A stretch of DNA of 4,830 nucleotides from a virus (taxonomy: Duplodnaviria > Heunggongvirae > Uroviricota > Caudoviricetes): the IMG/VR virus record IMGVR_UViG_3300029107_000017; one strand, 5' to 3'. Position 1 is the stretch's first letter, and the number at the start of each line of letters is the position of its first letter. The notes under the pieces were generated by a model that worked only from the letters and a program-made list of their open reading frames with translations, ran no database searches and had not been told where the DNA came from. Made by a program: the position numbers and the translations under genes. Of this stretch, positions 1,037-4,543 are shown piece by piece.

Positions 1037-1444
1037 TTATTTATTTGCGCTTCTTTTGCGAGCTTTGAGTAGTTCTTCAAAAAGTTTGTTGAAATTCTCA
1101 ACTCGAGCACGCATCTCTGACAACAGAGCCTTTTGCTCTGACTCAGGCAGTGCGTCGAACAGTTGAAGCAACTCTTTTTGATCTTCTGTCAGATTGACTG
1201 GCTGATTATCTGGGATCGGTTCGCCTGGTTGCTTATCTTCATCTCCAAAAAGAAGCCAGGTCGGCGAGCACTGAAGCGCCTGGCTCAGTGCGAATAATCT
1301 CTTCCCCGCTGGCTGTGTTTCATCTCTTTCCCATTGAGAAATTGTTACGTGAGCCACTTTGACCAGCTTACCTAATGCGGCCTGAGACAGTTTTAATTTT
1401 TTACGCCTGTATAAGAGGCGAGCACCGAAGGTTTCGTTTTTCAT
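1037..1444 (-). CDS. dicA: DicA-like prophage repressor (XRE-family HTH, 135 aa, no peptidase domain)
   Basis: ORF track 1037..1444 (-). Same length as E. coli DicA (135 aa) and shares long motifs with it as I recall the sequence: SQWER, LFALS..LQCSPTW.LFGDEDKQP, LPESEQ, EMRARV.NFNKLFEELLKAR. Divergent from a Cro-like gene. Confidence 0.85.
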   Translation of the reverse strand: MKNETFGARLLYRRKKLKLSQAALGKLVKVAHVTISQWERDETQPAGKRLFALSQALQCSPTWLLFGDEDKQPGEPIPDNQPVNLTEDQKELLQLFDALPESEQKALLSEMRARVENFNKLFEELLKARKRSANK

Positions 1445-1520
1445 ATTAGGTAATTCTAATTTCTCTTGACTTAGGTTTCTCTACAATCTAGTTTCCTTAG
1501 GAAAATCTAAGGAGTTCGAT
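1445..1520. promoter_or_regulatory. Divergent promoter/operator region between the repressor and the Cro-like gene
   Basis: Three YTTAG-N6-CTAAR sites: ATTAG-gtaatt-CTAAT (1445-1460), CTTAG-gtttct-CTACA (1470-1485), CTTAG-gaaaat-CTAAG (1496-1511), centres about 25 bp apart. Rightward elements: TTGACT (1466-1471), TACAAT (1482-1487), TAAGGAG (1508-1514). Leftward: TAGAAT (rc of 1453-1458) 8 nt before the repressor ATG. Confidence 0.55.
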
Positions 1521-1748
1521 ATGTTGAAAATTGATGCTATAGCGTTTTTTGGCAGCAAAACAAAGCTTGCCAATGTCGCAGGAGTTAGGCTGGCAAGCGT
1601 TGCAGCATGGGGGGAACTGGTTCCTGAAGGTCGCGCGATGCGCCTGCAAGAGGCATCCGGCGGGGAACTTCAGTACGACCCCAAAGTTTATGACGAATAT
1701 CGTAAGGCAAAGCGGGTGGGGCGGTTGAACAATGAAAATCACCCCTGA
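1521..1748 (+). CDS. dicC: Cro/DicC-like small HTH regulator (75 aa)
   Basis: ORF track 1521..1748 (+). TAAGGAG SD with a 6-nt spacer before the ATG. HTH-like segment GSKTKLANVAGVRLASVAAW. Divergent from the DicA-like repressor, as dicC is in Qin. Confidence 0.8.
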   Translation: MLKIDAIAFFGSKTKLANVAGVRLASVAAWGELVPEGRAMRLQEASGGELQYDPKVYDEYRKAKRVGRLNNENHP

Positions 1749-2283
1749 ACAGGTTTGTGAGGCTCTAGATGCCTGGGTATGCCGACCAGGAATGACACAG
1801 GAGCAGGCGACGATATTAATCACGGAAGCATTCTGGGCTCTGAAAGAACGCCCGAACATCGATGTTCAACGCGTCACGTTTAATGATGGCGAGGTTGATC
1901 AACGGGCGCTGGGCGTTAACCGGGTGAAGATATTCGAACGCTGGAAAGCTATCGACACCAGGGATAAGCGGGAAAAATTCACGGCGCTGATTCCGGCAAT
2001 TATGGAGGCTATCCGGATCAGCGATTTCAGGTTGTATTGTGAAATTACTGACGGAAAAAGCATTACGTACATGATCGCCGGGTTAAACAAAGAATATGGC
2101 GATGTGGTGGAGTCCGGGCTGCTTTTTGCGGATCCATCTGTTGTGGAACGTGAGACTGACGAGCTTATAGAAAAAGCTATTGCTTTCAAGCATGCGTATC
2201 GTCAGCAATATCAATATTACTTTGCAGATAAACAAATGTCTGCCAGGGGTTCGTATGAGTATCGATGCACTACGATGGGCTAA
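1732..2283 (+). CDS. YdaT-family protein (183 aa), CII-like regulator or putative toxin
   Basis: ORF track 1732..2283 (+). Overlaps the Cro-like gene's 3' end by 17 nt. MKI... N-terminus and the segment KREKFTALIPAIMEAI resemble Rac YdaT (QREKIQKLIPAILAIL) as I recall it. Confidence 0.7.
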   Translation: MKITPEQVCEALDAWVCRPGMTQEQATILITEAFWALKERPNIDVQRVTFNDGEVDQRALGVNRVKIFERWKAIDTRDKREKFTALIPAIMEAIRISDFRLYCEITDGKSITYMIAGLNKEYGDVVESGLLFADPSVVERETDELIEKAIAFKHAYRQQYQYYFADKQMSARGSYEYRCTTMG

Positions 2284-3295
2284 AAAGGTGAAAACCGGCA
2301 GTTCATCCAGTAAGTCAGTATTGACCTGGCTTGCTGATATGTGCGGTGCCGATTTGTGTGCATACCCGTCTGTATCTGCACTGGCAGAAGTAACGGAACT
2401 GAACAAAAAGACTGTGCAGGACAGCTTACGATACCTGATGGAGATTGGGTTAATTGTTGATACCGGTGAGAGAAAAGGCCGAACAAAGCAAATCGTGGTG
2501 TACCGACTTATCGGTGTAGAAGAAAGCGTTGCCGAGCCTGAATACACCCAAAAACGGGAGTCTTTAAAGGTGAGTAAAATTGGTGCTGTTAATAAAAACA
2601 GTACCGAAAATGGTTATGTTTCAGCACAAAACAGACCCAAAAACGGAACTCTTAGCTGCATGGAAAATAACCAAAGACACCCAAATTTTCCATCAAAGAC
2701 ACCCAAAAACGGATCACGGAACCCAAAGGAATCCAAAGATCTAAACCCCACACATAACGCACGCGAGAGTGCTCCGACCAGTGAGCAGGAAGTTTTGTCG
2801 TTACAGGCAGCACCCCTTGTATTCCTGGATGGCCTGAGCGAACCCATCGGAAAATTTCCGATGACCGATAGCTGGTATCCGTCACGGGATTTTCGACGAC
2901 GGGCTGCGTTGTGGGGGATGGCTTTGCCGGAGACAGAATTTACACCTGCTGAACTTGCCGCCTTCCGGGACTACTGGGCAGCGGAGGGGAAAGTGTTTAC
3001 GCAGATTCAGTGGGAGCAGAAATTCGCCCGTCACGTAAATCACGTCAGGGCGCAGGTTAAACCAGTCAGCAAGGGGGTAAACCATGCAGCAGCACCAGGT
3101 GGCACCGCATCACGGGCAGTTCAGGAAATTCGGGCAGCACGTGAGCAGTGGGAACGTGAAAACGGATTTATCAGCGACGGAAACAGCCTGGAAGCTGTGG
3201 GAACTCATGGGGGAGGTTTATTCGAACCGCTGGACCCAGAAGAACGGGGCCGCACCTTCGAAGCTCTGGATTGCACAGATTGGTGCGATGACTGA
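2255..3295 (+). CDS. Replication initiation protein: N-terminal HTH domain fused to a DnaT-like C-terminal domain (O-like)
   Basis: Track ORF 2180..3295 begins at a TTG. The in-frame ATG at 2255 has AGGGG 5 nt upstream and is the likely start (346 aa). N-terminus matches phage HTH initiator proteins. Residues around GKFPMTDSWYPSRDFRRRAALWGMALPE...YWAAEGKVFTQIQWEQKFAR closely parallel the E. coli DnaT C-terminal region as I recall it. Confidence 0.8.
   Translation: MSIDALRWAKKVKTGSSSSKSVLTWLADMCGADLCAYPSVSALAEVTELNKKTVQDSLRYLMEIGLIVDTGERKGRTKQIVVYRLIGVEESVAEPEYTQKRESLKVSKIGAVNKNSTENGYVSAQNRPKNGTLSCMENNQRHPNFPSKTPKNGSRNPKESKDLNPTHNARESAPTSEQEVLSLQAAPLVFLDGLSEPIGKFPMTDSWYPSRDFRRRAALWGMALPETEFTPAELAAFRDYWAAEGKVFTQIQWEQKFARHVNHVRAQVKPVSKGVNHAAAPGGTASRAVQEIRAAREQWERENGFISDGNSLEAVGTHGGGLFEPLDPEERGRTFEALDCTDWCDD
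2544..2730. repeat. Phased ACCCAAA(AACGG) direct repeats inside the initiator gene; candidate origin iterons
   Basis: ACCCAAA at 2546, 2635, 2679, 2701, 2721; three copies extend to (A/G)ACCCAAAAACGG(A/G). Spacings 89, 44, 22, 20 bp are near multiples of two helical turns. AT-rich stretch at about 2562-2632. The repeats also encode a Pro/Lys/Asn-rich interdomain linker. Confidence 0.4.
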
Positions 3296-3749
3296 GCAGC
3301 AAATCCGACAGGTCTGCCGCCAGTGCATGGACCGCTGCCGGGCGGGTGAAACATGGCCTCCGGACCTGGCTGAGTTTGTGGCGCTGATTTCTGAAAGCGG
3401 AGCCAATCCATTCGGTCTGACGGTGGATGCCGTGATGGAGGAGTACCGTCGCTGGCGCAACGAGTCCTGGCGATACGACGGGAGCGATAAATACCCGTGG
3501 TCTCAGCCTGTGCTGTATCACATTTGCCTCGAGATGCGTTCAAAGGGGATTGAGCGGCAGATGACCGAAGGGGAGTTAAAACGGCTTGCAGAACGGCAGC
3601 TGACGAAATGGGCAAAGCATGTTAGTAACGGCCTGAGTGTTCCGCCTATCCGGCGACAACTGGCAGCACCCAAACGTCCTGCGGGACCAACGCCAATTGA
3701 GTTGCTGAAACAGGAATATGAACGCCGGAAAGCGGCTGGGTTTGTCTGA
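3084..3749 (+). CDS. Lambda P-like replication protein (helicase loader), 221 aa
   Basis: ORF track 3084..3749 (+). ATG at 3084 preceded by AGGGGG (3072-3077) with a 6-nt spacer. Central and C-terminal segments (WPPDLAEFVAL; YPWSQPVLYHICLEMRSKGIERQMTEGELKRLAERQL) parallel lambda P (FLPSPGQFVAWC; YPWKSNAHYWLVTNLYQNMRANALTDAELRRKAADEL) as I recall it. Confidence 0.8.
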   Translation: MQQHQVAPHHGQFRKFGQHVSSGNVKTDLSATETAWKLWELMGEVYSNRWTQKNGAAPSKLWIAQIGAMTEQQIRQVCRQCMDRCRAGETWPPDLAEFVALISESGANPFGLTVDAVMEEYRRWRNESWRYDGSDKYPWSQPVLYHICLEMRSKGIERQMTEGELKRLAERQLTKWAKHVSNGLSVPPIRRQLAAPKRPAGPTPIELLKQEYERRKAAGFV

Positions 3750-3781
3750 TTTGAGAAGTAATTTTTACCGGGAGGAAATTT

Positions 3782-4543
3782 ATGGAGACTGTTTTTGACG
3801 CACTGAAAGCGATGGGAAAAGCCACGTCGGTAGAGCTGGCTGCGCGACTTGATATCAGTCGTGAAGAAGTGCTGAACGAGCTGTGGGAACTGAAAAAGGC
3901 TGGCTTCGTTGATAAAAGCGTATACACCTGGCGTGTGGCTTATAACAACGTTCAGCAGGAACAGCCAGCGCCGGCAGAACTGTCGGAAGAAACCACCACG
4001 GCAACAGTCGCTAAAATTTCGGAGAGCGATTTAACTGCGACGATTGAACAACGTGGACCACAAACGGCGGATGAACTGGCTACGCTGTCCGGTACCACAT
4101 CCCGCAAAGTGGCTTCAACGCTGGCAATGGCAATCAGCAAAGGTCGTCTGATTCGTGTAAACCAGAACGGTAAATTTCGTTACTGCATACCGGGTGATAA
4201 TTTACCAGCCGAGCCGAAAGTTGAATCGGTAGCGGAAACCGATGGTAAAGCCTTTCCTCAGCCAGCAGGTGTTGCGTTACCAGTACAGGAAGTTGCAACA
4301 CAGGAATATATTAAAACAGAAACTGTGGCTGATATTGTGCAATCGTTGCCATCGTTTACTGAAACGCGAGCGGATGACCTGGTTTTACCATCGCTGCATA
4401 TGGCAAACCGCGAATTGCGTCGGGCGAAAAATCATGTCCAGAAGTGGGAGCGTGTCTGCGCCGCGCTGCGGGAACTGAACAAGCACCGGGATATTGTCCG
4501 ACAGATTGTCGATTCCTCCAGTCGTATTGTGTCGGAAAAGTGA
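3782..4543 (+). CDS. Prophage protein of unknown function with two winged-helix-like modules and a charged helical C-terminus (253 aa)
   Basis: ORF track 3782..4543 (+). GGGAGG (3770-3775) with a 6-nt spacer before the ATG. Residues about 4-51 and 84-135 share a G.T..EL....(S/T)R..V...L.....G pattern, suggesting an internal duplication. Confidence 0.8.

Follow-up and report, generated by a model that had tools for sequence, protein, structure and literature searches.

In phages lambda and phi80, an iteron-bearing replication initiator gene (O and gene 15, respectively) is directly followed by a gene for a P-type helicase loader (P and gene 14). The C-terminal part of lambda O binds and recruits P. 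The same order of genes occurs in a 4,830-nucleotide (nt) stretch of viral DNA (Caudoviricetes; IMG/VR record IMGVR_UViG_3300029107_000017), here called the window, but while the genes of lambda and phi80 overlap by just 4 nt (ATGA), those of the window share 212 nt (positions 3084-3295). Comparison with relatives suggests that the shared segment is real, selectively maintained and ancient dual-coding DNA, a reading to which we assign a probability of about 0.82. Phage overlapping genes, the lambda O-P module and, in some databases, a long loader open reading frame (ORF) are known; what is new is the proposed conserved dual-coding junction of ~200 nt between initiator and loader. No account of this overlap came up in literature searches on the P/initiator overlap, on ydaU/ydaV and on DnaT-type lambdoid modules.

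The window loader shares its fold and four-part layout with lambda P, and phi80 gp14 is 48% identical to its C-terminal half (amino acids (aa) 93-221). Lambda O belongs to the Phage_rep_O family, whereas the window initiator instead has HTH_36-like and DnaT domains, and it carries an extra tail of ~80 aa after its last domain that has no counterpart in lambda O. In lambda, phi80 and the window alike, the loader goes together with the C-terminal part of the initiator. Escherichia coli DnaT has one domain in common with the window initiator (aa 194-278, corresponding to DnaT 82-166 of 179), but the window protein has the overlapped tail in place of the DnaT C-terminal peptide and, in addition, an N-terminal DNA-binding domain and an iteron-containing linker.

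The ydaU-ydaV pair of the K-12 type Rac prophage sits in the same neighbourhood as the window pair, composed of a dicA/racR-like repressor, a cro-like gene, ydaT, initiator, loader and a DUF1627 gene, and the N-terminal families of the initiators are related. However, the K-12 type has a DnaC-like (AAA+) loader and an initiator with a DnaT-type peptide at its end, and a 6-nt gap separates the two genes, whereas the window combines a P-type loader with an overlap. Long same-strand overlaps are known from lambda Rz/Rz1 and the genes of phiX174, and one frame of such overlaps tends to disorder where the other is constrained. As in these cases, the window has two proteins encoded by one DNA stretch on the same strand in different frames. 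Unlike an embedded gene, the window overlap is a terminal overlap of two partner replication proteins, and dominance switches inside it.

Geometry and conservation of the overlap

The initiator ORF extends over 2180-3295, with its real start at ATG 2255, as in RefSeq relatives, and its TGA stop at 3293-3295. The loader frame is the initiator frame +1. The two genes and the features of their overlap are as follows.

2255-3295, plus strand: replication initiator gene, 346 aa, DnaT domain at aa 201-267, start and stop as in RefSeq relatives
3084-3749, plus strand: predicted lambda P-type helicase loader gene, long form of 221 aa, identified with PF06992, phrog_109 and Foldseek
3084-3295, plus strand: proposed dual-coding segment, 212 nt, encoding initiator aa 277-346 in frame 0 and loader aa 1-70 in frame +1
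3071-3077, plus strand: Shine-Dalgarno (SD) site AAGGGGG for the loader, within the initiator ORF, 6 nt before ATG 3084
3113-3160, plus strand: core of block A, carrying aa 287-302 of the initiator, the tail helix (SRAVQEIRAAREQWER), together with loader aa 10-26 from the disordered N-terminus in the second frame
3192-3295, plus strand: block B, carrying loader aa 37-70 (AWxLW...MGEIYSNRWTQKNG...LWIAQIG), where the helices of domain II begin, together with the acidic, low-confidence initiator end in the second frame
3221-3247, plus strand: initiator tail motif F-E-P-L-D-P-E-E-R, aa 323-331, lying on the third positions of loader codons 46-54

A reading of the window from its letters alone (the sequence-only reading) had described two frames open across 3084-3295, an initiator stop at 3293-3295 and a P-like ATG at 3084 that lies inside the initiator ORF behind a strong SD site. 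The ORF list and the sequence confirm each of these, and the predicted pairing of AAGGGGG (3071-3077) reaches -11.8 kcal/mol. The same reading had appealed to a high third-position GC content (GC3) in the loader frame. Its counts were right (0.71 in the loader frame, 0.44 in the initiator frame), but the contrast is uninformative as an argument, because position 3 of the loader is position 1 of the initiator. Taken by itself, the window overlap could be due to chance: synonymous resampling of the initiator codons keeps the loader frame open in 40% of trials, and resampling of the loader codons keeps the initiator frame open in 7%. Significance comes from the layout being kept across relatives.

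To define a set of relatives, one genome per species was scanned with alignment-derived patterns, which gave 31 loci, all confirmed with tblastn independent of gene calls. In 28 of the 31, which come from other Enterobacterales genera, the loader frame is initiator +1 and an SD-ATG lies within the initiator gene. The sequence-only reading had asked whether homologous initiators end near 3080; instead, they run 149-227 nt past the conserved SD-ATG, most commonly by 212 or 215 nt. At these 28 loci the first loader-frame ATG, often directly after a loader-frame stop, lies inside the upstream gene and opens a loader of 208-224 aa. Loader identity to the window ranges from 44% to 93%, and synonymous sites outside the overlap are close to saturation among the loci. 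The same frame relation was found in all three Vibrio phages checked, with an SD-ATG inside the initiator gene, overlaps of 194-212 nt, the same tail motifs and loaders that are ~31% identical, so the arrangement is old. The module is common as well: of 5426 complete E. coli genomes, 1332 contain a match to a 1-kb probe.

The exceptions are of two kinds. Loci L034 and L039 are orphan loader genes without an initiator, and loci L037 (Leclercia; 2474-2689) and L041 (Symbiopectobacterium) are frameshifted in the overlap region, L041 being spread over many short ORFs and looking decayed. The orphan loader-like genes, both from Erwinia spp. (L034 2492-3118; L039 2474-3043), stand alone between apparently chromosomal genes and could be remnants or domesticated copies. 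L039 retains just 13 residues ahead of the conserved tryptophan motif.

A loader frame at +1 to the initiator is also the geometry that programmed +1 frameshifting into an initiator-loader fusion protein would use, and fused ORFs are present in databases (P0108, phrog_15931). Yet the SD-ATG of the loader is independent and conserved, often directly after a loader-frame stop, and no shift-prone site was seen on reading the sequence by eye, with no systematic search made. The fused or shifted forms consist of a deletion fusion (P0081), P0108, whose origin is unclear, and the frameshifted copies L037 and L041. Programmed frameshifting is accordingly judged unlikely, with a probability close to nil. 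The profile phrog_15931 (482 positions) matches the initiator C-terminus and the whole loader, suggesting that it was built on fused ORFs, and P0108 begins in the frame of the initiator tail and continues in that of the loader.

Selection on the two frames

Codon-position diversity among 27 loci divides the overlap in two. Across 3084-3155, position 3 of the initiator is the most variable (0.53-0.57, against 0.41-0.46 for the other positions), and across 3192-3295, position 3 of the loader is the most variable (0.45-0.52 against 0.23-0.36). Dominance switches within the overlap, from the initiator frame in 3084-3155 to the loader frame in 3192-3295.

Synonymous variation, measured as the fraction of codon pairs for the same residue in which the codons differ, is suppressed in the overlap, a check that the sequence-only reading had proposed. 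In the initiator frame, the synonymous difference falls from 0.52 in the DnaT domain to 0.39-0.45 in block A (taken here as 3084-3191) and 0.12-0.15 in block B. In the loader frame, it is 0.57 outside the overlap, 0.39 in block A and 0.53 in block B. Constraint over the overlap is not uniform, being split between an initiator-dominated and a loader-dominated part.

Individual codons of block B carry the mark of the second frame. Of 26 loci, 24 encode loader Lys53 with AAG, a codon whose share in the rest of these genes is 40% (p=3e-8). Loader codon 47 ends in G at 22 of the 26 (p=6e-8), and codon 52 does so at 24. These forced third bases at codons 47, 52 and 53 keep Glu-x-x-Asp-x-Glu-Glu in the initiator frame.

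Such choices bear on whether the initiator tail beyond ~3190 is unselected read-through after the ancient loss of a stop, with the loader frame alone functional in 3192-3295. The sequence-only reading had posed this alternative to genuine dual coding. The nearly normal loader-frame synonymous variation of block B (0.53 versus 0.57) is what this explanation would have, and the low confidence of the structural model over initiator aa 307-346 and the variable position of the initiator stop (overlaps of 149-227 nt) also speak for it. However, the initiator frame of block B reaches the observed stop in just ~28% of resamplings per locus given the loader protein, and the simulated first stop falls at a median of ~10 codons, against ~33 observed. 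The forced synonymous choices, moreover, preserve E-[PS]-[LVM]-D-x-E-E-[RW], and the tail motif is retained in the Vibrio phages. Read-through is improbable on this evidence, and of the two possibilities that had been posed, dual coding is the one favoured by the conserved layout and by the selection signatures in both frames.

Two further observations concern dual coding as a whole. Nucleotide diversity among 11 E. coli and Escherichia albertii copies has its minimum at 3100-3324 (0.026-0.040, against 0.07-0.155 in the flanks), although the sample is small and recombination could contribute. Ordered and disordered parts of the two proteins also interleave: the initiator helix lies over the disordered loader N-terminus, and the first helices of the loader lie over the acidic end of the initiator. 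This interleaving of predicted order fits the switch in frame dominance and offers a plausible reason why the overlap is tolerated. Taken from codon usage and conservation, purifying selection is indicated on both frames of the overlap.

The loader protein and its start

Profile and fold both place the product of 3084-3749 among the lambda P-type helicase loaders, with DnaB loading and recruitment by the initiator as predicted functions. PF06992 scores 61.3 bits (cut-off 26) in a match that begins at residue 56, and phrog_109, annotated as a 'P-like helicase loader', aligns residues 19-220 with profile positions 22-235 of 236 (E=5.6e-63). The best Foldseek matches are the lambda P chains of 9oa1; the full-length chain 9oa1_Z aligns over 217 columns (E=1.5e-5, template-modeling (TM) score 0.49). 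A resemblance to the N-terminus of lambda P had been suspected from the letters of the window, and it holds at the level of profile and fold.

An AlphaFold2 (AF2) model of the loader built from 28 sequences has a mean predicted local distance difference test score (pLDDT) of 73.8. Residues 1-27 are disordered (pLDDT <50) and are followed by helices at 26-46, 48-54 and 60-67 (pLDDT ~83). Lambda P has a disordered 'lasso' as domain I (residues 1-29), with domain II starting near residue 30 (PMC12661323). The loader layout in the AF2 model and the Foldseek alignment fits that of lambda P, with a flexible N-terminal segment, two compact helical domains and a C-terminal segment. When homologs from many genera are aligned, residues 37-68 rank with the most strongly conserved of the loader, and W39, W50, K53, N54, G55, P58 and W62 are invariant.

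Reference annotation of this protein is inconsistent (RefSeq loci L004-L009). RefSeq has a 153-aa form in each of the six E. coli genomes inspected and forms of 180-181 aa in other genera, the phage record LC567818 starts the loader at 3327 (140 aa), and older GenBank entries have the 221-223 aa form. The late RefSeq start hides the overlap in reference annotation. Downstream of ATG 3084, the loader frame has further ATGs at 3207, 3288 and 3327, two of which need description.

3207-3209, plus strand: in-frame ATG, loader Met42, the RefSeq start in other genera (180-181 aa), nearly invariant, in the middle of helix 26-46
3288-3290, plus strand: in-frame ATG, loader Met69, the RefSeq start in E. 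coli (153 aa, leaving an 8-nt ATGACTGA overlap), SD at background

The candidate starts differ in their anti-SD energy, the predicted pairing with the 3' end of 16S rRNA. A GGAGG- or GGGGG-type SD lies 6-10 nt upstream of the ATG equivalent to 3084 in nearly all loci. Over 27 loci, the mean energy is -9.4 kcal/mol at this ATG (-11.8 in the window), -5.3 at the Met42 position (-4.2 in the window) and -2.6 at the RefSeq E. coli start (-2.1 in the window), the last being equal to the background mean of -2.6. At the equivalent of 3084, 24 of the 27 loci fall below the 5th percentile of background. The initiator residue that spans the loader ATG is His, Asn, Asp or Tyr, and its codon is always NAT followed by G. 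A varying residue with a constant NAT-G is the pattern expected if the ATG, and not the amino acid, is kept.

A start at ATG 3288 (153 aa) or at the ATG 3327 of LC567818 (140 aa) would make the long overlap an accidental open frame. The Prokaryotic Genome Annotation Pipeline (PGAP) gives the 153-aa form in the six E. coli genomes, LC567818 gives the 140-aa form, and in a survey covering prokaryotic genomes all co-directional overlaps >60 bp turned out to be misannotated (PMC2478687). Comparative data contradict both of these starts: 27 conserved residues lie upstream of Met69, all the invariant ones among them, the Pfam match begins before Met69, and a start there would lose three predicted helices. 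SD energy at 3288 is that of background, four loci lack an ATG at the position, and RefSeq itself uses the equivalent of 3207 in other genera. A start at 3288 or 3327 is thus very improbable.

The start at ATG 3207 is a stronger contender, though still an unlikely one. It would reduce the overlap to 89 nt and leave the loader frame upstream open merely as a by-product of the initiator. Met42 is nearly invariant and has a weak SD-like signal (mean -5.3 kcal/mol), residues 1-36 are poorly conserved, 3084-3155 has the substitution pattern of the initiator frame, and at each locus chance alone would leave the loader frame of 3084-3191 open in ~72% of resamplings. Against this, the AWxLW motif (aa 35-39, including W39) lies upstream of Met42 and has the loader-frame pattern, a start at Met42 would cut the first predicted helix (26-46) in half, and L030 and L032 have CTG in place of the Met42 codon. 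The SD-ATG at 3084 is conserved in position and much stronger, the phrog_109 and lambda P alignments extend upstream of Met42, and the chance-open probabilities multiply to ~3e-4 over 21 lineages when taken as a simple product. Both starts may also be in use, giving two loader isoforms.

The case for the first 36 codons rests on the SD-ATG, the absence of Met42 from L030 and L032, and homology to lambda P. On these grounds the loader is predicted to start at ATG 3084, in which case the RefSeq form of 153 aa is truncated. The sequence-only reading had named a start at 3207 or 3288 with the other frame unconserved in the overlap as a result that would refute dual coding; among the homologs, both frames carry conserved residues and signatures of selection.

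Several points weigh against dual coding across the full 212 nt. Loader residues 1-36 have a pairwise identity of 30%, and the loader frame of 3084-3191 has the ~72% chance of being open per locus given above. The extra constraint on loader third positions in block B is small (0.53 versus 0.57) and concentrated in few codons. AF2 confidence in the initiator tail is low (pLDDT 37-67), and the 'disorder' of the tail is a prediction. Per locus, the chance of an open frame is 0.31 for the loader frame given the initiator protein and 0.054 for the initiator frame given the loader protein, but the loci share ancestry, so these probabilities are not fully independent and are not simply multipliable.

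The initiator tail, its neighbourhood and a possible lock

AF2 divides the window initiator into a confident N-terminal winged-helix, a disordered linker (aa 91-195), a confident DnaT domain, a helix of moderate confidence at aa 287-302 and a low-confidence end (low pLDDT over aa 307-346). The Pfam DnaT family PF17948 matches aa 201-267 with 61.5 bits (cut-off 25), and pLDDT is 85-90 over the domain; HTH_36 on the N-terminus scores 20.6 bits, under its cut-off of 25. The NCBIfam DnaT model NF002770 covers aa 194-278 with 93.9 bits against an equivalog cut-off of 201, which rules out the initiator as an equivalog of E. coli DnaT. PF04492 (Phage_rep_O) has no match in the window initiator, though it matches lambda O and the initiator of L026. 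The window initiator is predicted to play the role of O without belonging to the O family.

DnaT homology ends at aa 267 (Pfam) or aa 278 (NCBIfam), which leaves the last 68-79 aa beyond it, in agreement with the ~70 aa that the sequence-only reading had set apart. The last ~80 residues are recognisably conserved in the 28 loci (..GG.NHA...SRAVQQIRAAREQWERE..G...VG.HGGNLFEPLD.EE[RW]G...acidic end). The tail is found on initiators that are otherwise unrelated and have at least five different N-terminal architectures: HTH_36 and DnaT, DUF1376 and DnaT, Phage_rep_O, HTH_36/DnaD_N, DUF1376 alone or, in several cases, no Pfam domain. With the 79-aa tail as the sole query, just nine short E. coli fragments came back, and a full-length search was needed.

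Two initiators, along with the 4-nt overlaps of lambda and phi80, serve as natural controls. The L045 initiator (E. coli AMSCJX02, Rac K-12 type, 1473-3014) has the same N-terminal family as those of L033 and L035 and, as far as ..QGLF, shares 53% identity with the L033 initiator. Its partner is a DnaC-like loader whose gene it does not overlap, and its end (..VNTVSFPDSAIPPGFRG) matches the last 19 positions of the DnaT model. The C-terminal peptide of the initiator appears to be swapped along with the type of loader. The L027 initiator consists of lambda O's C-terminal domain (50% identity) and the extra tail, whereas lambda O itself stops 31 residues past that domain. As a separate observation, lambda O (L010) ends in ..KLDLTNTDWIYGVDL (LDLTNTDW), the window tail (3263-3292) in ..EALDCTDWCDD and that of Vibrio phage D75 in ..IDLDNGDWSSK. 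BLASTP gave no alignment for a terminal motif shared by lambda O and the tail; the likeness may be chance and is not used as evidence.

The window covers the region for immunity and replication in an E. coli prophage of the Rac-like lambdoid kind. Its other features are as follows.

1037-1444, minus strand: dicA-like repressor
1521-1748: cro-like gene
1732-2283: YdaT-family gene
2541-2564, 2630-2653 and 2696-2719, plus strand: three 24-nt direct repeats (iterons) with the core ACCCAAAAACGG, found by repeat search
3782-4543: DUF1627 gene

Partial iteron copies lie at 2595-2613 and 2672-2685, and the iterons fall within the part of the initiator gene that encodes the predicted disordered linker. 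By analogy with lambda and phi80, where iterons likewise lie inside O and gene 15, this stretch is probably the replication origin and is put forward as a candidate. An Rfam scan of the window gave no match, and no promoter-like or terminator-like site was found in 2800-3800; a separate transcript or RNA element is not indicated. Shorter same-strand overlaps occur upstream in the same operon, between the cro-like and YdaT genes (17 nt, 1732-1748) and between the YdaT and initiator genes (29 nt, 2255-2283). Both are annotated identically in the RefSeq relatives that cover that stretch (L004-L006).

Under the dual-coding reading, one message would be read in two frames, with frame 0 finishing the initiator and frame +1 starting the loader at ATG 3084 from its own SD. 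Frame 0 would give the short helix of aa 287-302 and then a probably flexible acidic end with F-E-P-L-D-x-E-E-R/W, while frame +1 would give the disordered residues 1-27 and then the first three helices of the compact second domain. The load would be shared, so that where one protein is ordered and conserved the other is predicted to be disordered and tolerant. By analogy with the P-binding C-terminal part of lambda O, the initiator tail may be a loader-specific adaptor. The recombination junctions of L027 and L045 suggest that tail and loader move as one unit, with a junction a few codons upstream of the loader SD. Recombination among mosaic phages could not separate the tail from its partner gene, because both would be on the same bases, and the module could then attach to unrelated origin-binding domains. 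A tentative extension, which we consider possible but doubtful, is that the shared ~200 bases encode in two frames two mutually binding surfaces, one being the initiator tail that recruits the loader and the other the loader's initiator-binding N-terminal part.

The start at ATG 3084 has a practical consequence, in that the N-terminus of the loader would be truncated in RefSeq for a very common prophage module, and cloning or modelling the annotated protein would lose three conserved helices. The junction would also be a well-supported long (~200 nt) same-strand overlap kept over long evolution, of which a survey found no real example among chromosomal genes (PMC2478687). If true, it would be a clear and ancient exception to the rule that prokaryotic co-directional overlaps >60 bp are annotation errors. 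If the two frames do encode mutually binding surfaces, the overlap would be a physical lock that keeps matched partners together during phage mosaic recombination, and it would be possible to graft the module onto any origin-binding domain. The model suggests how phages may keep initiator and helicase loader matched while freely swapping origin-binding domains.

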